Shown piece after piece: positions 5,058-51,019 of a DNA stretch of 64,000 nt. Positions within the stretch are counted from its first letter, which is position 1; each line of letters opens with the position of its first letter. A program made the translations under genes and the position numbers. Source of the DNA: Gammaproteobacteria bacterium (GTDB lineage Bacteria > Pseudomonadota > Gammaproteobacteria > JABABF01 > JAHRAO01); contig JAHRAO010000038.1 of the NCBI GenBank assembly GCA_020027215.1, positions 30,179 through 94,178 on the forward strand. The letters are read 5' to 3'. Under the pieces are notes generated by a model. The model searched no databases. It was not told where the DNA came from and saw nothing but the letters and a program-made list of their open reading frames with translations.

Positions 5058-5069
5058 TTGTTAATCTTA

Positions 5070-6632: not shown

Positions 6633-6763
6633 ACATTCATTGTAGCAAGGAAAGCGATTAATTCATTATCTGCATTGAAATATGTCTTTACTGTTATAAT
6701 AATAGTTGCAGATATTTTTTGTCTAACATACAATAGTGGTTTTTGAGATACAGTAAACATAAC

Positions 6764-7903
6764 ATGGCTTGGGACGATTCACATAATACAGGACCGCGGC
6801 AAAATCCACCCGATATATTCACGGCTATCACGCAATTGATTGTGCGGCTTAAGAAAATGTTTAATAATGCAGCGGGGCACAATGGCGGTGATAGCGACAA
6901 TAATAGCAAGTCCCCACGGAACTTCTTGTTCATTGTTGTGCTCCTTGCTGTCGCCATCATCTGGGGTTTGTTTGGTATTTATCAGCTAGACCAACAAGAG
7001 CGAGCGGTCATTTTGCGCTTAGGAAAGTATAACCGTACGGTGGGTCCAGGTTTACATTGGATGCCGCCATTATTGGAAAGTCGTACGGCAGTAAATGTTA
7101 CGAAAGTGTATACATGGCCTCACCAAGCCACCATGTTGACCGAAGACGAAAATATCATTGATGTCAATATTTCGGTGCAATACCTCATTGAGAATGCCGA
7201 TTTCTTTGTCCTCAAAGTCAATAATCCTCTCGCAACCCTGGGATTGGCGGCAGAAAGTGCGCTGCGCCATGTGGTTGGTGAGTCGGAAATGGATGAAGTG
7301 ATCGCAACCGGCAGGGCAGAAATTGCGGTGAATGTCCAAGAGAGATTGCAACGTTACCTCAATACTTATCAAACGGGCATCCAAATTTTGCAAGTGAATA
7401 TTGATAATGCACAGGCACCGAAACAAGTCCGTGAAGCTTTTGACGATGTCGTCAAAGCGCGCGAAGATAAAGAACGATTTATCAATGAAGCCAAAACGTA
7501 TGCCAATGGTATTGTGCCTGAAGCACGCGGGCAAGCAAAGCGACAAATTGAAGAAGCAACCGCCTATCGTGAACAAGTCATCGCCCAGGCAACTGGTGAT
7601 GCATCGCGGTTTGTGCAATTATTTACCGAATATAGTAAGAGCCCCAAAGTAACGCGTGAGCGCTTGTATTTAGATGCTATGCAAGAGGTATTGGGCAATA
7701 CCTCTAAAATCCTGGTCGATTCGAAAAGCGGGAGTAACAATATTTTTTACTTACCTTTAGATAAAATGATGGAATTGGGGCGACAGAATAGCAGTAATTC
7801 ACTTCAACTGGATAGTACTGCTGTCCAAGAATTGACGCGGAGTATCAAGCAACAATTAGAACGTTCCAACAACTATAAATCATCTAGACGGAGCAGTAGA
7901 TGA
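6764..7903 (+). CDS. hflK: FtsH protease modulator HflK
   Basis: MAWDDSHNTGP...NFLFIVVLLAVAIIWGLFGIY (TM) followed by a band-7/SPFH domain. Start taken at the ATG at 6764; the ORF-table start at 6743 is a TTG. Confidence 0.85.
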   Translation: MAWDDSHNTGPRQNPPDIFTAITQLIVRLKKMFNNAAGHNGGDSDNNSKSPRNFLFIVVLLAVAIIWGLFGIYQLDQQERAVILRLGKYNRTVGPGLHWMPPLLESRTAVNVTKVYTWPHQATMLTEDENIIDVNISVQYLIENADFFVLKVNNPLATLGLAAESALRHVVGESEMDEVIATGRAEIAVNVQERLQRYLNTYQTGIQILQVNIDNAQAPKQVREAFDDVVKAREDKERFINEAKTYANGIVPEARGQAKRQIEEATAYREQVIAQATGDASRFVQLFTEYSKSPKVTRERLYLDAMQEVLGNTSKILVDSKSGSNNIFYLPLDKMMELGRQNSSNSLQLDSTAVQELTRSIKQQLERSNNYKSSRRSSR

Positions 7904-8781
7904 ACCTCAATCGTGTAACAATTTTTTGGTTAGCTGTATTGGGCATAGCGCTATTCATTGCCAGCAATACTTTATATATCGTCAAAGAAACTGAACGCGC
8001 TATCTTATTGCGTTTTGGTGAATTGGTGCGTGCCGATATTCCACCTGGCCTGCATTTTAAGATGCCGATTATGCATCAAGTCCGTTTGTTTAACCGCCGC
8101 ATTTTAACTGTTGATTCTAATCCAGAACGATTTCTCACTAAAGAAAAGAAATTTTTAGAAGTGGATTCATTTGCGCAATGGCGTGTCTACGATGTTAGCC
8201 AGTATTATACGGCAACTAATGGTGAAGTGCGTCGTGCTGAGGCATTGTTGGCACAGCGCATTAATAATGGGTTGCGTAATAATTTTGGTGTGCGCACTAT
8301 GCACGAAGTGGTTTCCGGAGAGCGTGATGAATTAATGGAAGATTTAACCGAGACACTCGGGGGCATTACGAAGCAAGAATTTGGTATTGAGTTGATTGAT
8401 ATTCGCGTCAAGCGTATCAACCTTCCCCCAGATGTGAGCGAGTCGGTATATAATCGCATGAATACTGAACGCCAACGCAAAGCCCGCGAGTACCGTTCAG
8501 AGGGTTTAGAGCAAGCGGAAGGCATTCGGGCAAAAGCGGATCGAAAAAAAATTGTCATCTTATCCAATGCTTATCGTGAAGCAGAGCAGTTACGCGGTGA
8601 AGGCGACGCTAATGCCACTGCGATATATGCCACAGCATATAATCGTAGTCCAGAATTTTATAAATTTACGCGTAGCTTGAATGCGTATCGCATAGCTTTT
8701 AAGAATAAAAGCGATATTATGTTGCTTGCCCCTGAAGGCGAATTCTTTAAGTATATTGACAACTTGCAAGGCAAGAAATAA
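7900..8781 (+). CDS. hflC: FtsH protease modulator HflC
   Basis: SPFH/band-7 protein with an N-terminal TM. Its start overlaps the hflK stop (ATGA), the classic hflKC arrangement. Confidence 0.85.
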   Translation: MNLNRVTIFWLAVLGIALFIASNTLYIVKETERAILLRFGELVRADIPPGLHFKMPIMHQVRLFNRRILTVDSNPERFLTKEKKFLEVDSFAQWRVYDVSQYYTATNGEVRRAEALLAQRINNGLRNNFGVRTMHEVVSGERDELMEDLTETLGGITKQEFGIELIDIRVKRINLPPDVSESVYNRMNTERQRKAREYRSEGLEQAEGIRAKADRKKIVILSNAYREAEQLRGEGDANATAIYATAYNRSPEFYKFTRSLNAYRIAFKNKSDIMLLAPEGEFFKYIDNLQGKK

Positions 8782-8811
8782 CTTGTTTTTTGCGGTTGTC
8801 GGCACCGAGCA

Positions 8812-9792
8812 ATGAATTGGCTCTTGCCGGAAGGTATGGATGATATCCTCCCCGATCAAGCTGAAAAAATAGAACAGTTAAGGCGAGAGATGTTAGATAT
8901 CTGTTGCGCCGAAAATTACCGCTTGGTTATCCCTCCCCTTATGGAGTATAGCGCATCACTATTGGCAGGGCACCATGAAGATCTCGCTTTGTCAACCTTT
9001 CTCTTTCACGACCATCACAGTGGGCGTCAATTAGGGTTGCGTGCTGATGTGACGACACAAACTGCCCGTATTGATGCCCATCGTTTATGCCACAATGAAG
9101 TGAATAGACTGTGTTATGTGGAAACGGTTGTCCATACTCACTCGCAGACAATGTATGCCTCCCGTTGCCCAATTCAATTAGGTGCTGAATTATATGGGGT
9201 TAAAGGTCTTCAAGGCGATTTAGAGATTCTTTTATTATTAGTACGATTATTGAGAGCAGCTTTATCTCGTCCTATTGTTTTGAGTTTGGGGGATACGCAA
9301 GTGTTGGAGACACTATTGTCCTCCTGCCCGCTTCCAACTAAAAAGTTACTCATCGAAGCTTTACGCCATAAATCTCCCAATGACGTGCGATCTATACTTT
9401 CAGCACATTCCATTGACGCTGCACATTTGGACGCTATAGTGACCTTGACCGCAATGCACGGTGACATAGCGATATTAGATGAGGCGCATCAATTCTATGC
9501 AAATAAATTCCCCGCGATCGGGACGGCGATTGATAATTTAAGGCACCTTACGCACCGATTAAAAAAACAAGTGCCAGATTTGTCGTTTTATTTTGATTTG
9601 AGCGAGTATCTCGGCTATCGCTATCACACAGGATTAGTATTTGCGGCCTATTTATCGGGATACAATTATGTCATCGCTAATGGCGGTCGATGTGATGGAA
9701 TAGGGGCACCGTATGGGAAATCGCGCCCTGCAATCGGCATGAATACTCATTTGAAAACATTGGCATCATTAGTAGCCACCTCAGTACAATGA
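8812..9792 (+). CDS. hisZ: ATP phosphoribosyltransferase regulatory subunit HisZ
   Basis: HisRS-like catalytic-core paralog without an anticodon-binding domain (MNWLLPEGMDDILPDQAEKIEQLRREMLD...). It sits between hflC and purA, as in many non-enteric gammaproteobacteria. Confidence 0.75.
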   Translation: MNWLLPEGMDDILPDQAEKIEQLRREMLDICCAENYRLVIPPLMEYSASLLAGHHEDLALSTFLFHDHHSGRQLGLRADVTTQTARIDAHRLCHNEVNRLCYVETVVHTHSQTMYASRCPIQLGAELYGVKGLQGDLEILLLLVRLLRAALSRPIVLSLGDTQVLETLLSSCPLPTKKLLIEALRHKSPNDVRSILSAHSIDAAHLDAIVTLTAMHGDIAILDEAHQFYANKFPAIGTAIDNLRHLTHRLKKQVPDLSFYFDLSEYLGYRYHTGLVFAAYLSGYNYVIANGGRCDGIGAPYGKSRPAIGMNTHLKTLASLVATSVQ

Positions 9793-11048
9793 ATTCACCC
9801 TTGTTGCAAAATACCATTGTCATCGGAATGCAATGGGGGGATGAAGGCAAAGGAAAAATAATTGATTGGTTGGCACAGGATGCCCAAGCGGTCATTCGTT
9901 TTCAAGGAGGACATAATGCAGGCCATACTATTACAACACTGCGCAAGAAATTGATACTACATCTCATTCCTTCTGGCGCTCTCAATCCAGAGTGTCAATG
10001 TGTCATTGGTAATGGGGTCGTCTTATCATTACAGGCATTAAATACTGAAATGGCAATGCTCAAAGAAAATAATATTGATCTTGCTGAGCGCTTGCACATC
10101 AGTTTGAATTGTCCATTGCTTTTACCAAGCCATGAAGTATTAGATAAGGCGAGTGACAGTATAGGAACCACTTTACGCGGCATTGGACCGGCATACGAAG
10201 ATAAAGTTGCGCGGCGTGGACTGCGTGTGGGTGATTTATTGGATGAAAAGTTTTTTTGTCAGAAAGCGTCGGATTTATTGGATTACCATAATTTTTTGAT
10301 AAATCATTATTACCACCAAAAACCAGTAACTCCCAATCGCGTTATTGATACTTGTCTTAATCTGAGCGAAAAAATTCTGCCTCTATTGTGCGATGTCGCG
10401 ATGCGCTTACATGAATGGCACACAAATAAAAAACGACTATTATTTGAAGGCGCTCAGGGAGTATTATTAGATATTGATCATGGAAGTTATCCCTTTGTCA
10501 CTTCATCCAATACGGTTGCCGGTAATGCGGCTATAGGCACTGGATTTAGCCCCCTGCAATTTAATCAAGTGATTGGTGTGTGTAAGGCCTATACAACCCG
10601 AGTCGGTGAAGGGCCTTTCCCGACCGAAGAGCACAACACCGAGGGTGAAATTTTGCGACAAAAAGGCGAAGAAGTTGGGGCAACTACGGGGCGTCAACGC
10701 CGATGTGGCTGGTTGGATTTGTTCACTTTGCGCCGTATGGTTCTGATCAACAGCATTACAGAGATTATGCTCACTAAATTGGATGTGTTGGATTCTTTTG
10801 CCGAGATTCCAGTATGTATAGACTATAGCGCAGATAAGACTCCGCATTATATCAATTTGCCAGGATGGCAGATCATGACGCATGCGGTCAATCGGTACAA
10901 CGATTTACCAACGCAGGCTCGGGGTTATATTGAGTATATAGAAGATTTTATCGGTGTGCCGATTACAGTCGTTTCTACGGGTAAGATACGTGAACACATT
11001 ATTGTGCGTCATTCCGATCCATACCTTGCGGCAGAAGATCAACGATAA
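9789..11048 (+). CDS. purA: Adenylosuccinate synthetase
   Basis: QWGDEGKGKIID P-loop, GGHNAGHT, TTGRQRRCGWLD. Typical PurA length of 419 aa. Confidence 0.9.
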   Translation: MNSPLLQNTIVIGMQWGDEGKGKIIDWLAQDAQAVIRFQGGHNAGHTITTLRKKLILHLIPSGALNPECQCVIGNGVVLSLQALNTEMAMLKENNIDLAERLHISLNCPLLLPSHEVLDKASDSIGTTLRGIGPAYEDKVARRGLRVGDLLDEKFFCQKASDLLDYHNFLINHYYHQKPVTPNRVIDTCLNLSEKILPLLCDVAMRLHEWHTNKKRLLFEGAQGVLLDIDHGSYPFVTSSNTVAGNAAIGTGFSPLQFNQVIGVCKAYTTRVGEGPFPTEEHNTEGEILRQKGEEVGATTGRQRRCGWLDLFTLRRMVLINSITEIMLTKLDVLDSFAEIPVCIDYSADKTPHYINLPGWQIMTHAVNRYNDLPTQARGYIEYIEDFIGVPITVVSTGKIREHIIVRHSDPYLAAEDQR

Positions 11049-11060
11049 GAGTACCATGCT

Positions 11061-11147
11061 GGTGCCCAGGAGAGGACTTGAACCTCCACAACCTTACGGT
11101 CACTAGCACCTGAAGCTAGCGTGTCTACCAATTTCACCACCTGGGCG
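11061..11147 (-). tRNA. tRNA-Leu (anticodon CAG)
   Basis: The reverse complement folds as a class II tRNA. Acceptor GCCCAGG/CCTGGGC, D-arm GGTAGACAC, anticodon loop TTCAGGT (CAG), long variable arm, T-arm GGTTCAAGTCC, and a 3' CCA. Confidence 0.85.
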
Positions 11148-11230
11148 GTATGAATGCGATGATATTACTATACAATACATCACATATAATGACACATCTC
11201 TCGTTCCATATTCCATAACGGTTGGCAATA

Positions 11231-11989
11231 ATGAGGATATTGTTTGCATTATGTGCTGCCGCACTCGGAGGATTTTTTTTTGGTTCTGCTGGGTTTGTTA
11301 TCGGGCTATTGCTCGGTTTTTCTATTATCCCACGCCTACAACGCCGGAGAGCAGCACCGGTATTTTCTGAAGTTGCTTTTGCAATAATGGGACATATCGC
11401 GAAGGCAGATGGCCGGATCAGTGAGGAAGAAATCGCAGTCGCCGAGCAATTAATGGAAAAAATGAATTTGCATGGTGCGGCACGCGAGGAAGCGATCCTG
11501 TGGTATCAGTCTGGGACACAGCCACATTTTTACCTCCCGAGGGCGTTAGAACGCTTCAATCATTATTGTCGTTATCATCCGCAGTTGGGACAGCTTTTGT
11601 TATTGTTCCTTATTGAAAGTTCCCTCTCCGATGGCACATTGCATCCCAAAGAACGGGCTGTTTTGCTCCAAGTTGCCGTCAGCCTCGGTTATAATCAGGC
11701 ACAATTTGAGCACATGTTGGACATGAGTGGGGCGCAACATGGATTTTCTACCGATGATTTCCCGCAGGATACATCGCGACTAGACAATGCCTACCATGCC
11801 CTCAATATCGTATCAGATGCGTCCGATCGTGATGTCAAGCGTGCTTATCGCCAACTGATGAATCGCTATCATCCTGATAAAATGACTGCGCGTGGAGTGC
11901 CTAAAGATATGGTGCAATGGGGTACCGAGAAAACCCAGCAAATCCAATCCGCTTATAATATGATTAAAAAATCAAGAGGTATGGCATAA
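11231..11989 (+). CDS. djlA: DnaJ-like membrane co-chaperone DjlA
   Basis: N-terminal TM, a TerB-like middle region (MGHIAKADGRISEEE...), and a C-terminal J-domain with HPDK (YRQLMNRYHPDKM). It aligns with E. coli DjlA throughout. Confidence 0.8.
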   Translation: MRILFALCAAALGGFFFGSAGFVIGLLLGFSIIPRLQRRRAAPVFSEVAFAIMGHIAKADGRISEEEIAVAEQLMEKMNLHGAAREEAILWYQSGTQPHFYLPRALERFNHYCRYHPQLGQLLLLFLIESSLSDGTLHPKERAVLLQVAVSLGYNQAQFEHMLDMSGAQHGFSTDDFPQDTSRLDNAYHALNIVSDASDRDVKRAYRQLMNRYHPDKMTARGVPKDMVQWGTEKTQQIQSAYNMIKKSRGMA

Positions 11990-12507
11990 TGACGACTCGC
12001 ATTCACCTCTGTTTGTTGATATTTCTACAGGCATTGGCAACCGATCTTATCGCTGGACAATCCCCCCCACAGGAACAGCAATCTCTGCCCGCTACGCAGC
12101 ATGTGCAATTATTGGGTGCTACTATTGGTAGTGATAGGGATGAGATGATGCGCCGTATTTCTCGGCGTTATCGCCGCTCGCCCAATTGTCATCGCGTAGA
12201 TGGAAATGAAAAGTGCACACTACACCAAGTCATAGGCCGTCCGATGTATATGCATTTGTATCGCGTTCCTTTCAAACATGTTTCATGGGTATTTAGAGGC
12301 ACAAAACTTATTCAAGTGGATGTTGTATTATTTGACGGTGCAAAATATGTGCCTGACTATTCCAACATTATTGATCGCTTCAACAAACAATACGGGCAAA
12401 AAAATAAGCGGATGGGTAATGTGTTATACTGGAGCAATGACGATGCAACCATACAGTTTGATACCACCCGCGGAGCAATTTCTTTAAGGGAAAATAGAGA
12501 GCAATGA
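11989..12507 (+). CDS. Hypothetical secreted protein (signal peptide, no recognisable domain)
   Basis: MTTRIHLCLLIFLQALATDLIAG is a signal peptide. Its start overlaps the djlA stop (TAATG) and its stop overlaps the protease start (ATGA), so it is translationally coupled on both sides. Confidence 0.5.
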   Translation: MTTRIHLCLLIFLQALATDLIAGQSPPQEQQSLPATQHVQLLGATIGSDRDEMMRRISRRYRRSPNCHRVDGNEKCTLHQVIGRPMYMHLYRVPFKHVSWVFRGTKLIQVDVVLFDGAKYVPDYSNIIDRFNKQYGQKNKRMGNVLYWSNDDATIQFDTTRGAISLRENREQ

Positions 12508-13493
12508 AAATATTACTTGTGCGAGGATTCATTTGTTTGGTGATTTATGTGCCAATCAATTTATGGGCAGATGTTCCGGTAACGATTATCGGCGGTCAAT
12601 TAGCGGATAATAACGAGTATCCGTATGCTGTTGGGTTAGCTGATCCGCGTAAAACATCGGATACAGAATCAGTTTTTTGTGGCGGTAGCTTGGTGGGCGA
12701 TAAATGGGTGCTCACCGCTGCACATTGTGTTGTTGCGGATGATAGTTCAACATCAGAACCAGCCGCAACACGGCCACTTCCAGCCAATGAAATAGAAGTC
12801 GTCATCGGCAAAACTAATTTTGCCGATAGTACCACTCGGCGTTTCTCAGTGAGAAGAGTCATTTTACACCCCCAATATGTTTCTTCCGCTACAGCATCAG
12901 TAGAATATAGTGATATAGCGTTAGTAGAATTAAATAGCACGGTAACCAATCAAGTTGTAGGGCTCGCTTCGCCTACTGACGGACAAAATGCAACGGTCGT
13001 AGGTTGGGGGGTAACGTCGAGTGGCGATGACGCTCGTGCTTCTGATCGTTTGCTTGAAGTCACGCTACCCATTGTCCCTTTATCCACATGCCAATCAGTA
13101 TATATGAATGAATTGAGGGACAATATGCTTTGTGCAGGTACACGAGAGGGCGGCAAGGATTCGTGCCAAGGTGATAGTGGTGGTCCGTTATTGATTTCAC
13201 AAAATTCACAATTGCGGCAAGCGGGGATTGTTAGTTTTGGTGAAGGATGTGCAGAACCGGGTGTTTATGGAGTCTATACGCGCGTTGATTGCTATCTTCC
13301 TTGGCTTAATACAGTCACTGGATTAACTTTTAGTACGAGCGGGACTATCTCCTGCGGTAGTACTGGTGGTGGCGGTGGCGGCGGTTGTACAATGTCTGCT
13401 ACGCAACATACTACGCCGCTTGTGTGGTTGATTCCACTGATGCTTGCCGCCTACCGCTTTATTCGCCGGCGAATGCGTGTCCGCTTGCTTTGA
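12504..13493 (+). CDS. Secreted trypsin-like (S1) serine protease with a GlyGly-CTERM sorting signal (VesB-like)
   Basis: Signal peptide, then IIGG at the mature N-terminus. Catalytic triad motifs TAAHCV, DIALVEL and GDSGGPL. The C-terminus is GSTGGGGGGGC, then the hydrophobic LVWLIPLMLAAY, then RFIRRRMRVRLL. That is a Gly-rich tract followed by a TM helix followed by a basic cluster. Confidence 0.8.
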   Translation: MKILLVRGFICLVIYVPINLWADVPVTIIGGQLADNNEYPYAVGLADPRKTSDTESVFCGGSLVGDKWVLTAAHCVVADDSSTSEPAATRPLPANEIEVVIGKTNFADSTTRRFSVRRVILHPQYVSSATASVEYSDIALVELNSTVTNQVVGLASPTDGQNATVVGWGVTSSGDDARASDRLLEVTLPIVPLSTCQSVYMNELRDNMLCAGTREGGKDSCQGDSGGPLLISQNSQLRQAGIVSFGEGCAEPGVYGVYTRVDCYLPWLNTVTGLTFSTSGTISCGSTGGGGGGGCTMSATQHTTPLVWLIPLMLAAYRFIRRRMRVRLL

Positions 13494-13519
13494 CCGATTA
13501 TTCCACACAATAAAAAAAG

Positions 13520-14737
13520 GTGGGTGCATACAGCTACCAAGCCATTGCTGTCGGCGGTAAGAAAATAAAAGGCGTTATTGAAGGTGATTCGGAACGGCAC
13601 GTCCGCTCACTGCTCCGCGAAAAAAATCTCAAACCTATTAAAGTAACAGTCACCGCTGCGCAAATTAATGGGCAGACCAGTGGCTTTGCATTCTTCCAAC
13701 CGCGCATTAAAATAGCCGATTTGGCATTGATTACTCGCCAATTGGCTATTTTATTACAAGCGGGATTGCCGCTGGATGAAGCTTTGCAAACCACCGCTCG
13801 CCAAACACGTAAGGCACGGTATACCGGTATGCTCTTGCAAGTGCGCTCGCGAGTGACCGAAGGGCATACTTTAGCCCATGCCCTTGCTGAATACCCAAAA
13901 ATATTCAATGACCTTTATCGTGCTATGGTGCAAGCGGGCGAGCATGCTGGATTTTTAGGCGAAGTATTGGAGCAATTAGCAGAGTACACCGAAGCGCGCC
14001 AACAAGTACAGCAAGAATTGAGTGGTGCTATGATATACCCGATCATTCTAGCGTTGATTGCTTTTGCCGTTGTGGGAGGATTAATGGCTTTTTTAGTTCC
14101 CGAATTGGTGCGTATGTTTGAAAATACAGGCAACGAACTTCCTTTACTCACTCGTATTATTATTGCCGTTAGCGATTATGTCGTCGCTTACGGACTTTGG
14201 ACACTTGGAGGCATGTTGGGTTTGTGGTTTTTAACCATGTTTATTCTGCGTAACCGCAATAATTTAGCGCGTTTCCATCGTGTGGTGTTAAAGATCCCCG
14301 TAATCGGATATTTAATACGCATTGCCAACGCAGCACGATTTTCTAACACCCTCAGCATATTAATGAGTAGCGGAGTGCCTTTGCTGGAAGCCTTGCGCAT
14401 CGCAGGTGAAGTATTATCCAATTTGGTGATGCGTGATTCGTGTTTAGCGATCATCAATGATGTGCGCGAGGGGGGGAGTTTGTACCGTGCATTGGAAAAG
14501 ACCCAGCAATTTCCACCAATGATGGTACATATGGTGGCGAGTGGTGAGGCGAGCGGGGAATTGGAACAAATGCTCACTAAAGTTGCCAATAATCAGGATA
14601 GGGAATTGCGTGCTTATTTGAAAACCGCAATGAACCTGCTTGAACCTTTAATGGTGATCGGTATGGGCGGGATGGTATTGCTGATCGTGCTATCTATTTT
14701 ATTACCTGTCTTTAATCTCAATGATTTGGTAAAATAA
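13520..14737 (+). CDS. gspF: Type II secretion system inner-membrane platform protein GspF
   Basis: 405 aa with three TM segments and GspF/PilC-family repeats. GTG start preceded by AAAGG. N-terminus (M)GAYSYQAIAVGGKKIKGVIEGDSERHV resembles EpsF/GspF. Confidence 0.85.
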   Translation: MGAYSYQAIAVGGKKIKGVIEGDSERHVRSLLREKNLKPIKVTVTAAQINGQTSGFAFFQPRIKIADLALITRQLAILLQAGLPLDEALQTTARQTRKARYTGMLLQVRSRVTEGHTLAHALAEYPKIFNDLYRAMVQAGEHAGFLGEVLEQLAEYTEARQQVQQELSGAMIYPIILALIAFAVVGGLMAFLVPELVRMFENTGNELPLLTRIIIAVSDYVVAYGLWTLGGMLGLWFLTMFILRNRNNLARFHRVVLKIPVIGYLIRIANAARFSNTLSILMSSGVPLLEALRIAGEVLSNLVMRDSCLAIINDVREGGSLYRALEKTQQFPPMMVHMVASGEASGELEQMLTKVANNQDRELRAYLKTAMNLLEPLMVIGMGGMVLLIVLSILLPVFNLNDLVK

Positions 14738-14783
14738 TGGTGAAGGGTCAATGAATCAATGCATAATAAAAGAAGGTAATACC

Positions 14784-15227
14784 ATGCACGCATATCAAAA
14801 TTTGCATAAAAAGCAAAGAGGGTTTAGCCTGATTGAGATATTGGTCGTACTAGTGATCATGGGTATTCTTATTTCTTTAGTTGCTCCCAACGTCCTCAAT
14901 CGTATTGGACAAGCGCAGTCCCAAAAAGTATTCAGCGATTTTAAGGCTATTGAGACGGCTTTGACGATGTATAAATTGGATAATTTCAAGTATCCCGATA
15001 GTCAGCAGGGACTGAATGCATTGGTGGGTGGTGACAATTCGGGTTCGGGGTCTCATTGGCGCAAAGGCGGCTATTTGAAAGATACGCCTAAAGATCCATG
15101 GAATCAACCCTATAAATACTTAAGCCCAGGCCAAAACGGCGAGTACGATCTCTATACTTTAGGTGCAGATAATGCAGTCGGTGGTGAAGGGCAAGATGCC
15201 GATATCGGTAATTGGCAGGAAAAATAA
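14784..15227 (+). CDS. gspG: Type II secretion major pseudopilin GspG
   Basis: Prepilin leader MHAYQNLHKKQRG|FSLIEILVVLVIMGIL. Good RBS AAGAAGG before the ATG at 14784. Confidence 0.9.
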   Translation: MHAYQNLHKKQRGFSLIEILVVLVIMGILISLVAPNVLNRIGQAQSQKVFSDFKAIETALTMYKLDNFKYPDSQQGLNALVGGDNSGSGSHWRKGGYLKDTPKDPWNQPYKYLSPGQNGEYDLYTLGADNAVGGEGQDADIGNWQEK

Positions 15228-15834
15228 TAGACAGAGCGACTACCCCGCATTACGGGGATTTACTCTACTTGAAATACTAGTTGTCGTTTTTGTTATCGGT
15301 TTGGCGGCAAGTGTGGTCACCCTAACCATTAACCGTAGCCCAGATTCCCGAATTAAAAAAGCAACCGAGCAATTGTATAACAATCTCAGTTTGGCACAAG
15401 AAGAGGCTGTATTGCAGAATAATTGGTTGGGATTACGGTTAGAACGGGATGAAGACAGAACGGGCTATAATCGTTATCGTTGGTTGTTTTCCACCGATGA
15501 AGCGCAGACGTGGCAACAAATGACGAGTCAATTTTTTAGTGATGTCCAGCTGGGGGAATCACTCCAAATCATTTTAGAAATTGAAGATGGTATTGAACCA
15601 TCACGCGAGCAGGAACGCTTAGATTCCAATCTTTTTTTTGCCAACCCTTCACCCGATGAAGACGAACAGGAAGAAAAACGCCCCCAAGAACCGCCACCGC
15701 ATATCATATTTTACCCAGATGGCGGTAGCGACCCTTTTACAATTACAGTCAACCATCAAGACGGTGAGGGTGAAGAGTTAGCAATAGTTGGTGATGCGTT
15801 AGGGCGGTTAACTATACCTCACCCTGATGAATAA
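15196..15834 (+). CDS. gspH: Type II secretion minor pseudopilin GspH
   Basis: ...ALRG|FTLLEILVVVFVIGLAASVV is a prepilin-type N-terminus. Start is uncertain: ATG at 15196 or 15163. Confidence 0.75.
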   Translation: MPISVIGRKNNRQSDYPALRGFTLLEILVVVFVIGLAASVVTLTINRSPDSRIKKATEQLYNNLSLAQEEAVLQNNWLGLRLERDEDRTGYNRYRWLFSTDEAQTWQQMTSQFFSDVQLGESLQIILEIEDGIEPSREQERLDSNLFFANPSPDEDEQEEKRPQEPPPHIIFYPDGGSDPFTITVNHQDGEGEELAIVGDALGRLTIPHPDE

Positions 15835-16243
15835 GCATTCTCCCCGCACAACTGGTTTTACGCTATTGGAGGTATTGATTGCGCTCGCTATCGTGGCTAT
15901 TGCTCTACCGCCACTCCTCACCAACGCAATTGAGCAAATGAATGGTATTGGTCAATTACGCGAGCGCACTATTGCCCAATGGGTGGCACTCAATCGATTG
16001 ACTGCATTGAGATTGACCAACCATCACAGTGGAAAAGTCGCTCGCGGCCGTAGTAGCGGTCGTAGCGATATGTCTGGTGCGGTGTGGTATTGGACTGTCG
16101 AAACACAGGATACCGAATTGAAGAATTTTTACAAAATTGAAGTATCGGTTAGCGCTCAAGAAAACGGTGCAGCTTTAATTACTTTATCAACCTATTTGAA
16201 TGAATTTACCCCTGACCCTCCCCCGCGCTCGGGACTCAATTAG
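15827..16243 (+). CDS. gspI: Type II secretion minor pseudopilin GspI
   Basis: MNKHSPRTTG|FTLLEVLIALAIVAIALP. Confidence 0.8.
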   Translation: MNKHSPRTTGFTLLEVLIALAIVAIALPPLLTNAIEQMNGIGQLRERTIAQWVALNRLTALRLTNHHSGKVARGRSSGRSDMSGAVWYWTVETQDTELKNFYKIEVSVSAQENGAALITLSTYLNEFTPDPPPRSGLN

Positions 16244-16247
16244 ATCT

Positions 16248-16892
16248 GTGACTCGTATTCAAGTGGCTGGATTTACTTTAATTGAGGTTCTGATCGCGAT
16301 GGCGATCAGTGCTATAGTCGGTGTGATGGCATTTAGTAGTTTGGACGTGACCAGTCGTGCCTTAGATGTTAATCGCCGTTATGCTGAACGCTTGAGCGAA
16401 GTTAATCGCACCTGGGCAGTGATCGCACGCGATCTGCGTCAAACTATTCCGCGCAGTGTGCGTAACCAATACGGTACTGCGCAAGCGGCTTTATTTGGTG
16501 GCTCAGCAACGCAACCGATATTAGAATTGACGCGCACCGGCTGGATCAATCCGCGGAAACTTTATCGTAGTTCAATGCAACGGGTGAGTTATCACTGGGA
16601 GAACGATAGCCTTTACCGTGAATATTGGCAAAATTTAGATCGTTCAACCCAAAGTCAACCTATCCGTAGCTTATTGTTAGAAGGCGTTACTGATTTTAGG
16701 TTGCGGTTCTTAGATGGCAGTAATGACATCAGTGGCGGGAATGACAATGTATTCGGCGGAATCTGGCGCGAGGATTGGAATGCGAATGCCGTGGAGAGTT
16801 CGTCTATTGCGATGCCTCTTGCTATTGAAGTGACCATTGAGATGGACGATTGGGGCGAAGCACGACGTTTATTTGCTTTGGCGACGCCATGA
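16248..16892 (+). CDS. gspJ: Type II secretion minor pseudopilin GspJ
   Basis: ...IQVAG|FTLIEVLIAMAISAIVG. A GTG at 16248 directly after the gspI stop gives a short leader. The alternative ATG at 16200 is inside gspI. Confidence 0.75.
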   Translation: MTRIQVAGFTLIEVLIAMAISAIVGVMAFSSLDVTSRALDVNRRYAERLSEVNRTWAVIARDLRQTIPRSVRNQYGTAQAALFGGSATQPILELTRTGWINPRKLYRSSMQRVSYHWENDSLYREYWQNLDRSTQSQPIRSLLLEGVTDFRLRFLDGSNDISGGNDNVFGGIWREDWNANAVESSSIAMPLAIEVTIEMDDWGEARRLFALATP

Positions 16893-17956
16893 AGTATTGT
16901 GCTTCCCATAGCGTTTGCGGCGCTGCCTTGATTATTGCTTTACTCGTACTGAGTTTGGTGTCTACTTTGACTGTCGGCATGAGCCAATTTTATATGATTA
17001 CAGTGAAGCGGCATAGCAATACTTACCACGGTGAACAGGCATATATGTTTTTAACCGGTGCTGAAAACTTAGCCCGCCATTGGTTACATACGGAAATTAA
17101 AGAAGACAAACGTGATAACGAATTGAGAGATCATTTAGGCGAAACTTGGGCGCTCACTATACCGCCATTTGAAATAGATGGCGGATTGTTAGAGATCCAG
17201 TTAGAAGATTTGTCTGCTAAATTAAATATTAGTGGGCTCATTAATCGCGATGCTAATCAAGTGGGCAAGCTAGGCGCTGTGCCGTATAATATCCAACAGA
17301 GGCGCTTTATCCGTTTGTTGCAAACATATACGACCAGCAATTACTCTATTAGCACGCCTTTACTCAATCAACAACAGGCGATCCAATTGACGCAGGCATT
17401 AGTGGATTGGTTAGACGACGATAGCCGTGTATCGGGCACCGATAGTATGGAAGATGATGATTATATTGCAGAGTATGGATATCGTGCAGCAAATACTTTG
17501 CCACTCAGCACAACGGAATTACAATTATTACCCTTTTTCCGCAGAATTCCAGGACTATTGGCGCAACTCTACAATGATATTACTGTGTGGCCATTACAGG
17601 GTGATAAAATCAACATTCATACAGCGACCAATAATGTGTTGCGTAGCCTCTATACTGGCAATGGGCTTGCACCATTGGCGAGTGAAGATATTGAGCGGTT
17701 ATTATCCAATAATAACCGCCGAACAAAATGGGCGAGTAAAGAAGTGGGTGGTTTTCTAAGTTTAGAAAGTTTTTTACAACATCCGGTGTGGAATAATAGA
17801 GTGAATAATAGTTATCTTACCGAAACCAGTGAGTATTTTTTGTTTACCGGTAAAGTCACTTTGGGAGAAGTCAGCCGTCAAATGAAAAGCGTATTACACC
17901 GTGATCCAAATACCTTTGCGGTAAAAGCTGTCGTCCGTAGCTTAAGCACACTATGA
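16889..17956 (+). CDS. gspK: Type II secretion minor pseudopilin GspK
   Basis: MKYCASHSVCGAALIIALLVLSLVSTL is a GspK-like N-terminus. ATGA overlap with the gspJ stop. Confidence 0.75.
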   Translation: MKYCASHSVCGAALIIALLVLSLVSTLTVGMSQFYMITVKRHSNTYHGEQAYMFLTGAENLARHWLHTEIKEDKRDNELRDHLGETWALTIPPFEIDGGLLEIQLEDLSAKLNISGLINRDANQVGKLGAVPYNIQQRRFIRLLQTYTTSNYSISTPLLNQQQAIQLTQALVDWLDDDSRVSGTDSMEDDDYIAEYGYRAANTLPLSTTELQLLPFFRRIPGLLAQLYNDITVWPLQGDKINIHTATNNVLRSLYTGNGLAPLASEDIERLLSNNNRRTKWASKEVGGFLSLESFLQHPVWNNRVNNSYLTETSEYFLFTGKVTLGEVSRQMKSVLHRDPNTFAVKAVVRSLSTL

Positions 17957-19188
17957 AATTACTCATTTTGCGCCCGTCCTCACAGACCGATTGCTATGAT
18001 ATTGGAATCTATGCTGAAAAAAGTGCTTGCTTTTATCGTCAGGCGCATACTCCTGTACAAGAAATAAAAAAGCACGTCCGCAATGAAAAAATGCACATTC
18101 TTTTATTATTACCCGCTGAAGTGGTGTTGCTGGATACTTTAGAATTTTCTCCTACCGAACGCCGCCATCTCAATGAAATACTTCCGTATTTGCTGGAAGA
18201 GAAGCTCATTGATGATGTAGATACTTTGCATTGTGCTTACAGTATCACCGATAGTGCTGAAGGAAAAGCATCTGTTGCTGTGGTGGAGCGCGATACCTTC
18301 AGAAAATGGCTCACTCCGTTAGAAGAAAACGATTTATTCCCTGACCAAGTGGTTGCCGAACAACAAGCGCTCCCCACGGTTGAGCAACAATGGACGGGTT
18401 ACTATGGTAATGGATATTTATTGTTGAAATGTGATGCATCCATGGCATTATGTGCGCACCATAATATAGCACAGGCGGCATTAGATTTATTGATCCAAGA
18501 TAAGAAAAAAAAATTACCGACCAATATCATGATTGGGGTCGCCAACGATCACGATCGTCAGGAGGCGCTCGCATTCATTCCAAAAAAAGCGACCCCCAAT
18601 ATTACTTTTGAACAGAGAGATTTTTTTGATATGGTCGCTTTGGCGCATACCGCTCGATCCCCCGCTATCAATTTGTTACAGGGGAATTTTGCCTTAGCTA
18701 TTCCGTGGCAACAATTGTGGCAACAATGGCAAGGCGTCATTGTGGCGGGCGCTATTGCATTGACGGTACTCTTGACCGAAGTCGGGTTGGAATGGCATTC
18801 TGCTCACACGCATAATCGTCAATTACAACAAGCGGTGCAAGAGTTGTATAGCCAATCTTTTGCCAACAGCCCCCTCCCTGCCGACCCATTAGCCTACTTA
18901 AAGTCTCGTTTACAACCTTTACAACGTGTCAATAGTACAAGCGGGTTTTCTGTATTATTGGAAAAAGTGGGGGGCGGCATTCGTCAAGTGCCGGGAATCC
19001 GTATAGACAATATTAACTATAACGGGCAATCGGGTGAAATGAAGGTGGGTATTCTATCCCCAGATTTCCAACGGGTTACGGACTTACGCAATCAGTTGAA
19101 TCTCGTTGGAGTGGAAGTGAAATTGATCAATAGCACTTCGGATAACAACATCATCCGCGCCAATTTATCCTGCCGACAACAGACATGA
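17953..19188 (+). CDS. gspL: Type II secretion protein GspL
   Basis: 411 aa. Cytoplasmic domain, one TM (IVAGAIALTVLL), then a periplasmic domain. Start overlaps the gspK stop. Confidence 0.7.
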   Translation: MKLLILRPSSQTDCYDIGIYAEKSACFYRQAHTPVQEIKKHVRNEKMHILLLLPAEVVLLDTLEFSPTERRHLNEILPYLLEEKLIDDVDTLHCAYSITDSAEGKASVAVVERDTFRKWLTPLEENDLFPDQVVAEQQALPTVEQQWTGYYGNGYLLLKCDASMALCAHHNIAQAALDLLIQDKKKKLPTNIMIGVANDHDRQEALAFIPKKATPNITFEQRDFFDMVALAHTARSPAINLLQGNFALAIPWQQLWQQWQGVIVAGAIALTVLLTEVGLEWHSAHTHNRQLQQAVQELYSQSFANSPLPADPLAYLKSRLQPLQRVNSTSGFSVLLEKVGGGIRQVPGIRIDNINYNGQSGEMKVGILSPDFQRVTDLRNQLNLVGVEVKLINSTSDNNIIRANLSCRQQT

Positions 19189-19655
19189 TAAAAGATTGGT
19201 TGAATAGATTGACAAGTCGTGAGCAATGGTTAGTGCTCGTCATGGGTGCGGGTTTAGTAGTATTGATTGGATATAACGCACTGTGGCAACCATTGAGCAC
19301 AGCCACGCAGACATTACGGGATAAAAATACTTATGCTCACGACACGATTGAATGGATGGTCCAAAACAAAAAAGCAATCAATAGCTTGGGGGAGAGCGGT
19401 ATTGCGTCATCTGATGCCACTGGATTATCGGATATCCTCAATCAATCCATTTCACATCGTGGACTACGCATGAGTCGTTTTCAGCCCGGAGAAAATAATC
19501 AAGCACAGGTCTGGTTAGACGATGTCGTTTTTGATACGCTCGTTTTGTGGCTTCACGATTTAGAGATAACCTATGGTTTGAGTATTCTCAATTTAACCAT
19601 TAATAGTCGCGATACCCTCGGCGAAGTCAATGTGCGCTTGCGCATTCAACAATAA
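19185..19655 (+). CDS. gspM: Type II secretion protein GspM
   Basis: 156 aa. MIKDWLNRLTSREQWLVLVMGAGLVVLIGYNALWQPL matches the GspM N-terminus and TM. Confidence 0.75.
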   Translation: MIKDWLNRLTSREQWLVLVMGAGLVVLIGYNALWQPLSTATQTLRDKNTYAHDTIEWMVQNKKAINSLGESGIASSDATGLSDILNQSISHRGLRMSRFQPGENNQAQVWLDDVVFDTLVLWLHDLEITYGLSILNLTINSRDTLGEVNVRLRIQQ

Positions 19656-19667
19656 AAACAGTCAACA

Positions 19668-20444
19668 ATGAAGTTACTGCCATTTCCTATCCCGCGTGTG
19701 CGTACCATCCTCTTCGTCATAATCCTATTGGTCTTTTTTCTAATTTATAATGCCCCAGCGCGCTTAGTTCATTATGTGTTACCGCCCAATGAAGGGACCG
19801 TATTACCTTATGACATTCAAGGCACCATCTGGAATGGATCTATCGGTACTCTTTTTGTCCAAACCCCCAAACAATGGTTACACTTTAATCAATTGCGCTG
19901 GCAATTATCGCCATGGCATCTCTTTGCTGGGCAATTACGTTATAGGGTGACCTTACAATATTTGCGTCACCCTGCTTTTGCCCATATTGTGTTGCATTTT
20001 GGTGGGATCGATATGGAGCAAGTCCAGATGAGTGGTTTGCCACTGAAGCATTTCCGTGATCTTTTACCTCTTCCTTTAGACGGACAACTCATTATCAATC
20101 TAGAGAGGGTAGAGTTACGGCACCGAGAAATCACGACTATACAGGGTGCTGTTGCTTGGAGTGGTGCGGCAGCGATTATTGGGAGTAATGTAGAAGATTT
20201 TGGCGATTTTTCAATGAAAATTACGACCCCTGAAGAAGGGCAGTTTGCTGGAGAATTGACCGATTTTGGAGGGCATTTAGCATTGAATGGCGGCGCAACA
20301 TATCAGGATAAAAAATTTTCAGTCAAAGTGGAAATTGAGGTGCGTGATTCAGCAAGTCCATCATTGCGCCACGGTGTGCAACTCATTGCTCGCCCACTCG
20401 GCAATAATCGTTTCTTACTAGAATACTCTGGGAATGTGCCCTAA
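19668..20444 (+). CDS. gspN: Type II secretion protein GspN-like
   Basis: 258 aa. N-terminal membrane anchor with a PAR motif (NAPARLVHYVLP), then a periplasmic domain. It is the last gene of the gsp operon, where GspN sits in Aeromonas and Vibrio. Confidence 0.55.
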   Translation: MKLLPFPIPRVRTILFVIILLVFFLIYNAPARLVHYVLPPNEGTVLPYDIQGTIWNGSIGTLFVQTPKQWLHFNQLRWQLSPWHLFAGQLRYRVTLQYLRHPAFAHIVLHFGGIDMEQVQMSGLPLKHFRDLLPLPLDGQLIINLERVELRHREITTIQGAVAWSGAAAIIGSNVEDFGDFSMKITTPEEGQFAGELTDFGGHLALNGGATYQDKKFSVKVEIEVRDSASPSLRHGVQLIARPLGNNRFLLEYSGNVP

Positions 20445-21353: not shown

Positions 21354-21656
21354 ATGAGTAAAGAAAATAATTTGAATAAAAAAAGCTTGGCTGTTGCCTT
21401 AGGCTCAGTATTCCTTGCTTCTTCCATTGTTCCGTTAGCGAGCGCAGAAAGTACTAATCCTTTCCAAGCAGAGTCACTACAGCATGGTTATGAAGAAGTG
21501 AATTATGGCAGCAAAGCGCCCAAAGGTGAAGAAGGGAAATGTGGTGAAGGCAAATGCGGCGACAAGAAGAAAGGCGAAGGGAAATGTGGTGAAGGCAAAT
21601 GTGGTGACAAGAAGAAAGGCGAAGGGAAGTGCGGCGAGGGCAAATGCGGCCACTAA
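21354..21656 (+). CDS. Secreted RiPP precursor of the Hvf/bufferin type, with tandem EGKCG repeats
   Basis: Sec signal peptide MSKENNLNKKSLAVALGSVFLASSIVPLASA. The core is KGEEGKCGEGKCGDKKK GEGKCGEGKCGDKKK GEGKCGEGKCGH: six Cys, each in an EGKCG motif. It lies immediately upstream of a DUF692 gene. Confidence 0.8.
   Translation: MSKENNLNKKSLAVALGSVFLASSIVPLASAESTNPFQAESLQHGYEEVNYGSKAPKGEEGKCGEGKCGDKKKGEGKCGEGKCGDKKKGEGKCGEGKCGH
21525..21653 (+). repeat. 2.8 tandem copies of a 45-bp unit encoding GEGKCGEGKCGDKKK
   Basis: Copy A 21525-21572 (48 bp, one extra GAA codon). Copy B 21573-21617. Partial copy C 21618-21653. Nucleotide identity between copies is over 90%. Confidence 0.9.
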
Positions 21657-22507
21657 AAGAAGCTGCTACAGTTGTTTCCGGATCTGGGTTAGGCTTAAGA
21701 CGTGATTTCATCACTGACATATTGACCCAGCTTCCGGAGCAAGTGGATTTCATGGAAGTTGCTCCTGAAAACTGGATAGGGATCGGGGGACAGCATGGAA
21801 AACAATTCAGTGCTCTTGCCGAGCATTATCCGATTACGCTACATGGCTTATCGCTCAACATTGGAGGACCAGATCCTTTAGATACAAAACTGATTGATAA
21901 TATTCGCCAATTTATTGATCGCTATCAATGTCCTTTTTACTCCGAACATCTCACTGCCTGTGGGGATCATGGGCACTTGTATGATTTAATGCCGTTGCCT
22001 TTTACCGAAGAGGCGGTGCACTATGTTGCCGAACGAGTGAAAGAAGTACAGGATAGGTTAGGGATGCGTATAGCCTTGGAAAACGCTTCGTACTATACAG
22101 CGTTACAACAAGATTTAAGTGAAAGTGATTTTATCTGTGCAGTATTAAAAGAAGCGGATTGCGATCTGTTGCTGGATATCAACAATATATATGTCAATAG
22201 CGTCAATCATTCGTATGATCCAATTCAATTCTTACGCCGCCTACCCGTGGAACGGGCTATTTATTTCCATATTGCGGGACATTACCGCGAGGCAGAGGAT
22301 TTGCGTATCGATACGCATGGGGCAGATGTGTTAGCAAGAGTGTGGTTTTTGTTGGAAGAAGCCTACCGTCTATTTGGTAGTCAACCGACCTTACTAGAAC
22401 GAGATTTTAATATTCCCCCCTTAGAAACGCTGTTGCTGGAAGTTGAGAGAGTGCGGGCTTTACAGTCCTGTTATTCAGATGACTACAGCTTGCAAGCCGC
22501 GTTATAA
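21629..22507 (+). CDS. DUF692 (UPF0276) multinuclear non-heme iron oxidase (MNIO), MbnB/HvfB/BufB family
   Basis: GLGLRRDFITDIL...DFMEVAPENW...YPITLHGLSLNIGGPDPLD...YSEHL is the canonical DUF692 TIM-barrel pattern. Start is uncertain: the ATG at 21629 overlaps the precursor by 28 nt. Confidence 0.8.
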   Translation: MRRGQMRPLKEAATVVSGSGLGLRRDFITDILTQLPEQVDFMEVAPENWIGIGGQHGKQFSALAEHYPITLHGLSLNIGGPDPLDTKLIDNIRQFIDRYQCPFYSEHLTACGDHGHLYDLMPLPFTEEAVHYVAERVKEVQDRLGMRIALENASYYTALQQDLSESDFICAVLKEADCDLLLDINNIYVNSVNHSYDPIQFLRRLPVERAIYFHIAGHYREAEDLRIDTHGADVLARVWFLLEEAYRLFGSQPTLLERDFNIPPLETLLLEVERVRALQSCYSDDYSLQAAL

Positions 22508-23246
22508 TTTTCAGAAAATACAAGCGCATTTTTCAGCATATTTGCGTGATCCAGAAAACACGCCACCCCCTCCACGTATTCAAGCGCGGCGCTTAAAAAT
22601 TTACAATGATTTATTTTTCAATAATATGTCCAACTTTTTATCTAACGGGTTCCCTGTATTGCGTAAGTTATATCACGACAATGATTGGAACGCGTTGGTG
22701 CGCAATTTTATGCGCGTACACCGTTGCGCGACACCTTATTTTGCCCAAATAGGTCAAGAATTTGTTGCTTACCTACAACACACACATGCCTCCACTCCAG
22801 CTGACCCTCCTTTCCTTATTGAATTGGCTCACTATGAATGGATTGAAACGGCGTTACAATGTGCTGAAGAAGATATACACGGCATAAGCGTTAACCGGGA
22901 TGGCCATTTGTTACAAGAGCGTCCAGTGCTTTCGCCTTTGGTTGTTTCGCTCGTTTATCAGTATCCTGTGCACCAAATTAGCCCCTCATGCCGTCCAGAA
23001 CACCCGTCAGCAACTCCACACTATTTACTTGTTTATCGTGATCGCGCCGATACGGTGCAATTTATGGAAATTAATGATGTGACTGCAGGTTTAATTAGTA
23101 GATTGCAAGAAAATACTCATTTCACCGGAGCAAGAGTACTCCAAGATCTCGCCCACCAGATGAACCAAGATGATGTTTGTCAACATGGAGCGAATATGTT
23201 GTCTTTATTGCGGGAAAAAGATATTCTTTTGGGAACAGCACCATAA
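22479..23246 (+). CDS. DUF2063 partner protein of the MNIO (HvfC/BufC-like)
   Basis: The N-terminus FQKIQAHFSAYLRDPENTPPP matches the conserved DUF2063 start. It overlaps the 3' end of the MNIO gene. The ORF-table start at 22443 is probably too far upstream. Confidence 0.7.
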   Translation: MTTACKPRYNFQKIQAHFSAYLRDPENTPPPPRIQARRLKIYNDLFFNNMSNFLSNGFPVLRKLYHDNDWNALVRNFMRVHRCATPYFAQIGQEFVAYLQHTHASTPADPPFLIELAHYEWIETALQCAEEDIHGISVNRDGHLLQERPVLSPLVVSLVYQYPVHQISPSCRPEHPSATPHYLLVYRDRADTVQFMEINDVTAGLISRLQENTHFTGARVLQDLAHQMNQDDVCQHGANMLSLLREKDILLGTAP

Positions 23247-25578: not shown

Positions 25579-25803
25579 ATGATGGCAAGTGATATGATGT
25601 GGCAAGGAGTGGTTTTAATGATTGCCGGTATGGTCACGGTGTTTTCTTTTTTAATTATATTAATACTGTGTTTACACGCTATGTCGGCTATACTGTCGCG
25701 TTTTCCAGATCCCTTATCCACGGGCGCGCAGCTCCCTCAACCCGATCCACGAAAAATTATTGCTGCCGCCACGGCAGTGCATATGGTGCGTCACCGTAAA
25801 TGA
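25579..25803 (+). CDS. oadG: Oxaloacetate decarboxylase gamma subunit
   Basis: 74-aa single-TM protein. It directly precedes oadA, with an ATGA overlap. Confidence 0.6.
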   Translation: MMASDMMWQGVVLMIAGMVTVFSFLIILILCLHAMSAILSRFPDPLSTGAQLPQPDPRKIIAAATAVHMVRHRK

Positions 25804-27578: not shown

Positions 27579-27583
27579 ACCCT

Positions 27584-50941: not shown

Positions 50942-51017
50942 GCCGGAATAGCTCAGATGGTAGAGCAGTTCACTCGTAATGAAAAGGTCGGAGGTTCGAC
51001 TCCTCTTTCCGGCACCA
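50942..51017 (+). tRNA. tRNA-Thr (anticodon CGU)
   Basis: GCCGGAATAGCTCAGATGGTAGAGCA...anticodon loop CTCGTAA...GGTTCGACTCC...TTCCGGCACCA. Cloverleaf is consistent; 3' CCA is encoded. Confidence 0.8.
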
Positions 51018-51019
51018 TA

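Follow-up and report, generated by a model that had tools for sequence, protein, structure and literature searches.

A 64-kb stretch of contig JAHRAO010000038.1 from a member of the Gammaproteobacteria, hereafter called the window, carries at positions 11231-20444 twelve consecutive open reading frames (ORFs) on the plus strand, namely djlA, an ORF for a protein of 172 residues (ORF172), a gene for an S1-family serine protease, together with gspF-G-H-I-J-K-L-M-N, which are type II secretion system (T2SS) genes. We read djlA-ORF172-protease-gspF-N as one 12-gene unit in which a cargo module is joined to a split gspF-N block, and we hold this reading with moderate confidence. The protease ends in a sorting tag and, since the tagged trypsin-like protease is encoded directly upstream of gspF-N, the arrangement, taken together with the literature on such tags, reads most naturally as a cargo encoded with its machine. 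Seen together, the sorting tag and the apparent partnership of ORF172 with the protease give the upstream genes the appearance of a cargo module and not of a link to chaperones.

The protease gene occupies positions 12504-13493 on the plus strand. Its product, an S1 (chymotrypsin-fold) trypsin-like serine protease, matches Pfam Trypsin (PF00089) at 6.8e-55 over the entire profile (positions 1-220 of 220) and the trypsins of the PDB at 4e-39, and has a signal peptide followed by the start of the mature enzyme, IIGG, at residue 28. The motifs TAAHC, SDIAL and DSCQGDSGGP were located, from which His74, Asp137 and Ser225 are predicted to form the catalytic triad; Asp219, within DSCQGDSGGP, stands at the trypsin-specificity position at the base of the S1 pocket. 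The last 42 residues (nucleotides 13365-13490) form a tripartite tag composed of GGGGGGGC (residues 288-295), i.e. seven glycines followed by Cys295, the stretch TMSATQHTT, a hydrophobic membrane helix, PLVWLIPLMLAAYRFI (residues 305-320), and the terminal RRRMRVRLL with an Arg cluster, RRRMRVR, at residues 321-327. The model that fits this tag best is the JDVT-CTERM model NF033191, with a sub-threshold match that covers model positions 1-33 of 35 and scores 23.1 bits in the complete protein and 26.9 bits when the tail is taken alone. The GlyGly-CTERM model TIGR03501 gave no match to either the protease or the tail, even at E values up to 1. Three homologous proteases (P0053, P0076 and P0037) end in tags of the form Gn-C-SAS...P-helix-RRR and reach 21.9-26.1 bits with the JDVT-CTERM model, and further bacterial homologues end in GlyGly-type tags. 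The gene for P0037 lies on contig L012 (422-6391) beside an S8 peptidase gene, followed by genes for a GGDEF protein and an MshE-type ATPase (MshEN, T2SSE), and this contig may represent another neighbourhood in which a tagged protease is encoded near a type IV filament ATPase.

ORF172 (11989-12507, plus strand) codes for a periplasmic protein with a signal peptide that has no match in Pfam or NCBIfam, known inhibitor families such as ecotin included. A word-index search with ORF172 returned only ORF172 itself, and a full HMMER search over 1.84 billion representatives returned just two credible relatives, P0128 (160 residues) and P0129 (180 residues, with a lipobox), which share an RRxRRxPxC...C motif. 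Two other candidates from the HMMER search, P0126 and P0127, were dismissed as spurious, being low-complexity repeat proteins. An alignment-based metagenome scan added only L019, a second copy from the P0129 lineage and hence not an independent member. P0129 is encoded divergently beside a gene for a 326-residue trypsin-family protein ending in a GG-helix-Arg tag, and P0128 divergently beside a partial trypsin-family gene, so that an S1 protease gene is adjacent in all three members of the family, in genomic contexts that are otherwise unrelated. The remaining neighbours vary from locus to locus, which leaves a neighbouring S1 protease gene as the one conserved feature, in three of three lineages. 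The small ORFs beside the tagged proteases on L010/L011 and L012 are not relatives of ORF172 (blastp E = 0.82 or worse).

An AlphaFold2 model of ORF172, built from the three-sequence alignment, is confident in the mature part, with an overall pLDDT of 78 that rises to about 90 in the core and a pTM of 0.70. A Foldseek search of this model against the PDB gave nothing significant. The nearest folds, all at modest Z scores, are double-wing, BLIP-like and immunity proteins, among which are enzyme inhibitors. Small periplasmic partners of secreted hydrolases, which either shield the periplasm or help in folding, include ecotin, the serralysin inhibitors AprI/Inh and the lipase-specific foldase Lif. 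ORF172 resembles these in being a small signal-peptide protein encoded beside a secreted hydrolase, but differs from all of them in having no sequence similarity to any of these families. We infer that ORF172 is dedicated to the S1 protease as a periplasmic partner, acting as an inhibitor or as a folding helper, and we regard an inhibitor as somewhat likelier than a foldase.

The genes of the unit are tightly packed. djlA (11231-11989, plus strand) codes for a membrane-anchored DnaK co-chaperone and is joined to ORF172 by a TAATG with an overlap of 1 nt, and ORF172 is joined to the protease gene by an ATGA with an overlap of 4 nt, as an original prediction made on this DNA had claimed. Between the protease stop codon and the GTG start codon of gspF lie 26 nt; the close spacing that had been predicted for this junction was found, the exact figure of 27 nt was not. 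The same prediction held that all downstream gsp genes overlap or abut one another, and up to gspN all junctions are indeed overlaps or gaps of at most 13 nt, with gaps of 13 nt between gspF and gspG and of 12 nt between gspM and gspN, overlaps for the pairs gspG/H, H/I, J/K, K/L and L/M, and either an overlap or a 4-nt gap between gspI and gspJ, depending on the choice of start codon.

All of these T2SS genes lie on the plus strand, and the assignments are as follows. The inner-membrane platform protein GspF is encoded at 13520-14737, as judged from TIGR02120 (484 bits against a cut-off of 424) and a full-length alignment of homologues. The major pseudopilin gene gspG (14751-15227, with its start at 14751 or 14784) matches TIGR01710 at 168.5 bits and has the cleavage motif RG↓FSLIE (the arrow marks the cleavage site). 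The minor pseudopilin genes are gspH (15196-15834; TIGR01708, 92 bits against 80; motif RG↓FTLLE), whose start at or before 15196 gives an overlap of at least 32 nt with the end of gspG, gspI (15827-16243; TIGR01707, 77 bits against 44), gspJ (16200-16892, start at 16200 or 16248; TIGR01711, 137.8 bits against 65) and gspK (16889-17956; NF037980, 186 bits against 130), for which either the ATG at 16889, overlapping the gspJ stop codon, or the start of the longest ORF at 16850 can be taken. The assembly-platform gene gspL (17953-19188; TIGR01709, 181 bits against 65; Pfam T2SSL and GspL_C) is followed by gspM (19185-19655; Pfam T2SSM, 1.1e-35) and by gspN (19668-20444; Pfam T2SSN, 9e-26), the last gene of the unit, the latter two being called from Pfam models only. 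The platform proteins GspF, GspL and GspM and the pseudopilins GspG-K are therefore all encoded in the locus. The nine gsp ORFs are all intact, with no frameshifts or internal stop codons; their scores exceed the curated cut-offs of the models applied to them, and the prepilin cleavage motifs G↓F(S/T)L(I/L)E of GspG-J are intact in the sequence. A GC-rich hairpin (CCCCGCATTACGGGG, 15243-15257) lies just 3' of the gspG stop codon, within the gspH leader, and could attenuate read-through past the major pseudopilin gene.

Two accessory genes stand apart from this block, as had been predicted: gspB (4170-5057; Pfam T2SSB, 1.2e-09) and gspA (5070-6632; Pfam AAA_22, 5e-29, and GspA_C39-like, 1.3e-06), both on the minus strand and together an ExeAB-like pair at 4170-6632. 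Both are full length, and hflK, hflC, hisZ, purA and a tRNA-Leu gene lie between the pair and gspF-N. GspA also matches TIGR03015, the model for the ATPase associated with the XrtA/PEP-CTERM system, at 272.6 bits, which is under the cut-off of 324.5 and reflects the common ExeA/EpsA-type AAA domain; a peptidoglycan-binding domain was not reported for GspA in the family scan at E < 0.01. With its intact ORFs and cleavage motifs and the intact gspA/gspB pair, the gspF-N machine looks functional, as far as this can be judged from sequence.

The genes gspC, gspD, gspE and gspO are absent from the 64-kb window, in which all ORFs of at least 150 residues were scanned against Pfam or NCBIfam, and a tblastn search of the window with GspC, GspD and GspE from two relatives gave a best E value of 0.03. 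These searches bear out the claim in the original prediction that gspC, gspD and gspE are missing both from the locus and from the 64 kb around it. Left of the window, the adjoining 2 kb or so carry DUF3450 and ExbB genes and no gspCDE. The flanking genes have housekeeping functions (aconitase, ampD, gltX, oadAB, degP, dnaX, accBC, thrS, infC, pheST and others), and because such unrelated genes flank the block on both sides, gspCDE cannot be contiguous with gspF-N, be it within the window or just outside it.

The arrangement had been called atypical, and comparison with relatives agrees. Among 5.8 billion proteins, the closest GspF sequences are 58-60% identical to that of the window, and those with names belong to Halieaceae, with none named Legionella in that list; the best match among the GTDB representatives is 52% identical. 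With the closest GspF just 58-60% identical, the lineage is poorly sampled. Six relatives with readable neighbourhoods (L002, L007, L008, L016, L017 and L018; GspF identity 52-60%) were examined, and in all six gspE lies immediately upstream of gspF, with gspC and gspD ahead of gspE where the contigs extend further. The layout in the window is therefore a derived one. Two of these relatives show disruptions of their own in otherwise canonical gspC-N operons: in L007 (12453-14347) an ORF of 255 residues without assigned function and an enoyl-CoA hydratase gene on the opposite strand are placed between gspH and gspI, and in L008 (11708-15555) a transposase gene (rve) follows gspG, and none of gspK, L, M and N lies in the 10 kb that were read downstream.

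The organism is represented by a single assembly and a single read set. An independent Logan contig, L001 (SRR27685851), is 99.98% identical to the window over 9945 nt from gspA into gspG (window positions 4893-14837). Since this assembly matches across the protease/gspF junction, the junction is not the artefact of one assembler, and a mis-assembly at this point was thereby ruled out. A horizontal-transfer origin of the ORF172-protease pair was likewise considered and rejected, as djlA, ORF172 and the protease gene agree with the remainder of the window in GC content, GC3 and codon usage.

With regard to transcription, the upstream boundary of the unit is a tRNA-Leu(CAG) gene on the minus strand (11060-11146; ARAGORN, Rfam tRNA at 53.8 bits, and inspection of the sequence), which leaves the 84-nt spacer at 11147-11230 as the sole room for a promoter before djlA. 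Just past gspN, a convergent dienelactone-hydrolase gene ends at 20462. No Rfam element, i.e. neither a regulatory RNA nor a riboswitch, was found within the unit at gathering scores. According to established operon statistics, overlaps and a gap of 26 nt favour co-transcription; given the gene overlaps and the 26-nt gap at hand, co-transcription is likely, and the 12-gene unit is probably co-transcribed as a whole.

A characterised cargo of this sort is the trypsin-like protease VesB of V. cholerae. It depends for its surface display on its GlyGly-CTERM tag, on rhombosortase and on the T2SS: the tag is removed by cleavage, a lipid-like moiety is added, and the protease travels to the surface via the T2SS (PMC6219818). 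The window protease resembles the VesB/RssP/Eps system in being an S1 trypsin-like protease with a signal peptide and a tripartite tag of Gly-rich motif, helix and basic residues, and several of its homologues have GlyGly-type tags. It differs from VesB in its tag, in which a Cys follows the Gly run and nine residues then lead up to the helix, and which fits the JDVT-CTERM model best and is not matched by TIGR03501, and in that the window holds no rhombosortase. The vesB gene is not known to lie within the eps operon, whereas the protease gene of the window is placed immediately upstream of gspF.

The JDVT-CTERM, MYXO-CTERM and related tags have an invariant Cys for which lipidation followed by cleavage by an intramembrane protease of the CPBP family has been proposed; JDVT-CTERM proteins typically occur once per genome in beta- and gammaproteobacteria and were found beside the protease MrtJ 16 times out of 17 (bioRxiv 10.1101/2023.06.07.544157). 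Experiments have confirmed myxosortase, and the T2SS is required for the arrival of MYXO-CTERM proteins at the surface (PMC11980579; bioRxiv 10.1101/2023.06.07.544157). The window tag shares with the JDVT-CTERM/MrtJ and MYXO-CTERM/MrtX pairs the tripartite build with a Cys, a helix and an Arg cluster. It departs from JDVT-CTERM in its sub-cut-off score, in TP for DP, in that no CPBP protease is adjacent in the window, and in that the neighbour of the tagged gene is ORF172, which codes for a soluble periplasmic protein. By analogy, the VesB/rhombosortase/Eps and the MYXO/JDVT-CTERM systems would be the closest functional counterparts of the locus.

There is also a parallel for a T2SS substrate gene beside its machine. 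In Klebsiella, pulA adjoins pulC-O and is divergent from the machine genes, and in E. coli yghJ/sslE lies upstream of gspC-M, both cargoes being N-terminal lipoproteins. The window may be likened to these loci as a case in which the gene of a surface-anchored, lipid-modified T2SS substrate lies beside its export machine, but its cargo is tagged at the C-terminus and encoded on the same strand upstream of gspF, and its machine genes are split. Surface display of PulA needs PulN (PMC12802150), and GspN was reported to be required for lipid-bearing T2SS cargo, i.e. lipoproteins, in A. baumannii and K. pneumoniae (PMC12802150).

The original prediction had likened the locus to the split lsp loci of Legionella, and this likeness is only a loose one. 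In both, the T2SS genes do not form one operon and the genes for secretin and ATPase lie away from F-K, and the analogy goes no further than this separation. In contrast, Legionella distributes its genes over five loci (lspC; lspDE; lspFGHIJK; lspLM; pilBCD) and has no gspN (PMC6617341; PMC12802150), whereas the window has a contiguous gspF-N including gspL, gspM and gspN, with gspA/gspB nearby. Legionella lspF is, in addition, monocistronic with its own mapped transcription start, and in the L. micdadei clade tesA, coding for a periplasmic hydrolase with a signal peptide, is inserted between lspF and lspG (PMC6617341). With tesA there is an earlier example of a split T2SS cluster into which a hydrolase gene is inserted.

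These comparisons allow us to propose how the unit might work. A rearrangement would have split gspF-N from gspC, gspD and gspE, which, together with the prepilin peptidase gene gspO, would be located elsewhere in the genome. The protease would be exported by Sec, its C-terminal helix and Arg cluster would keep it anchored in the inner membrane, and the tag would then be modified at its Cys and cleaved, by analogy to MYXO-CTERM and JDVT-CTERM proteins. ORF172 would most likely hold the protease inactive, or aid its folding, until export. GspN, encoded at the end of the operon, would provide the component reported to be necessary for lipid-bearing cargo, and djlA would be a housekeeping DnaK co-chaperone gene that happens to head the transcript.

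Several observations weigh against this proposal. A working T2SS is an assumption, since gspCDE are absent from the window and from the 2 kb adjoining it on the left. The tag remains below the JDVT-CTERM cut-off of 27 bits and has T-P at +9/+10 after the Cys where JDVT-CTERM has a near-invariant DP, and the scans of the window revealed neither an MrtJ/CPBP protease (PF02517-type) nor a gene of the rhombosortase/rhomboid family. The tagged homologues whose neighbourhoods were read (L010 and L012) are not beside gsp genes. A consensus scan showed no convincing promoter or terminator between djlA and gspF; its counts (27 sites where 24.4 were expected, and 11 where 10.2 were) were no better than after shuffling and speak neither for nor against internal signals. 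Alternatively, a chromosomal rearrangement could have brought gspF-N next to unrelated genes, so that djlA, the ORF172-protease pair and gspF-N would be separate units that are merely juxtaposed, possibly with internal promoters, and the protease would take another route or stay in the inner membrane. The A-rich 26-nt spacer is the one real gap in the chain and gspF has a weak ribosome-binding site, which would suit such a boundary, as would the separate transcription start of Legionella lspF (PMC6617341), the placement of the tagged homologues away from gsp genes and the lack of a sorting enzyme in the window. However, 26 nt leave little room for a terminator plus a promoter, none of which was detected there, the djlA/ORF172 and ORF172/protease junctions are overlaps, and the characterised tripartite tags of Gram-negative bacteria, GlyGly-CTERM and MYXO-CTERM, are T2SS-dependent (PMC6219818, PMC11980579). 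We regard mere juxtaposition as a possible, yet clearly less probable, explanation. It is very unlikely, in our view, that gspF-N is the non-functional leftover of a decaying system that has lost gspC, gspD and gspE. The absence of these genes from the 64-kb window and the 2 kb to its left would fit such decay, and the relative L008, with a transposase gene after gspG, has an eroded cluster; however, the nine gsp ORFs as well as gspA and gspB are full length and above curated cut-offs, with cleavage motifs and tight overlaps kept and no frameshifts or internal stop codons, and split yet functional T2SS loci are well documented (PMC6617341).

The remaining alternative concerns djlA, for which the original prediction had suggested a link between envelope-stress chaperoning and T2SS assembly. 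DjlA is well identified: it matches the NCBIfam equivalog NF006948 over residues 4-254 with 239 bits against a cut-off of 162, has Pfam TerB (3.1e-13) and DnaJ (2.5e-10) domains with the HPD motif at residue 214 and a hydrophobic N-terminal membrane helix, and an independent gene call chose the same ATG. Its J domain might recruit DnaK for assembly of the GspE/F/L/M platform or for the membrane-anchored protease precursor. Such a role would be in keeping with the 1-nt overlap between djlA and ORF172, with nothing intervening between djlA and the rest of the chain, and with a cytoplasmic J domain on the side of the membrane expected for the protease's Arg tail and for the GspE/L interface. There is, moreover, a case from a related machine: in L. 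pneumophila, a djlA mutant has a partial defect in natural transformation, like the approximately 100-fold drop of comM and comEA mutants, and natural transformation depends on a type IV filament machine related to the T2SS (PMC7811196). On the other hand, nothing in the searched literature connects DjlA with type II secretion, a scan of metagenomes for DjlA gave no matches, no second djlA-gsp linkage emerged, and the six relatives have gspE and not djlA before gspF. djlA also fits a housekeeping equivalog, and its position could be no more than a by-product of the rearrangement that displaced gspF-N. We thus found no support for the predicted link, whose sole basis is the 1-nt overlap with the next gene, and we consider a functional part of DjlA in the system improbable; the coupling of djlA is more likely positional than mechanistic.

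Some further features of the window lie outside the unit. Downstream of the T2SS block, past the convergent hydrolase gene, a complete hvfA-hvfB-hvfC cluster (21354-23246, plus strand) codes for HvfA, a 100-residue precursor of an oxazolone/thioamide RiPP (ribosomally synthesised and post-translationally modified peptide) metallophore with KCGExKCG repeats, the MNIO maturase HvfB and its partner HvfC. A Na+-translocating oxaloacetate decarboxylase is represented at 25800-28750 (plus strand) by its alpha and beta subunits; in combination with about 44-45% GC, this gives a hint that the host may be marine or lean towards anaerobic life. A protein of 346 residues without an NCBIfam match is encoded at 43848-44888 (plus strand); it has three DnaT DNA-binding domains in tandem (PF17948, 1.3e-54), an architecture that is unusual for a primosomal protein of the DnaT type. 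The longest ORF for a glycosyltransferase of family 4 (50957-52063) overlaps a tRNA-Thr(CGT) gene (50942-51017), so that its true start must be downstream of the tRNA.

Each of the single elements is already on record, namely split T2SS loci, surface proteases that depend on the T2SS, and sorting tags at the C-terminus. The novelty lies in their combination: the gene of a Cys-tagged trypsin-like protease immediately precedes gspF, and the block closes with gspN, the component that has lately been associated with lipid-bearing cargo. The small and hitherto undescribed ORF172 family, with its three members, is a candidate for a new protease inhibitor or folding partner. In a bolder version, which we think improbable, ORF172 would found a new and very rare family of periplasmic inhibitors or chaperones that serve tag-anchored S1 proteases, within a self-contained operon of cargo, keeper and machine, and membrane-bound DjlA/DnaK would act on the cytoplasmic Arg tail of the protease precursor or on the GspE/L/F platform; if true, a J-domain co-chaperone would for the first time be connected with the type II secretion of a C-terminally tagged cargo. 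On the reading that we favour, a cargo module joined to the split gspF-N block, the locus offers a natural test case for the question whether JDVT-like Cys tags are routed via the T2SS like GlyGly-CTERM and MYXO-CTERM.

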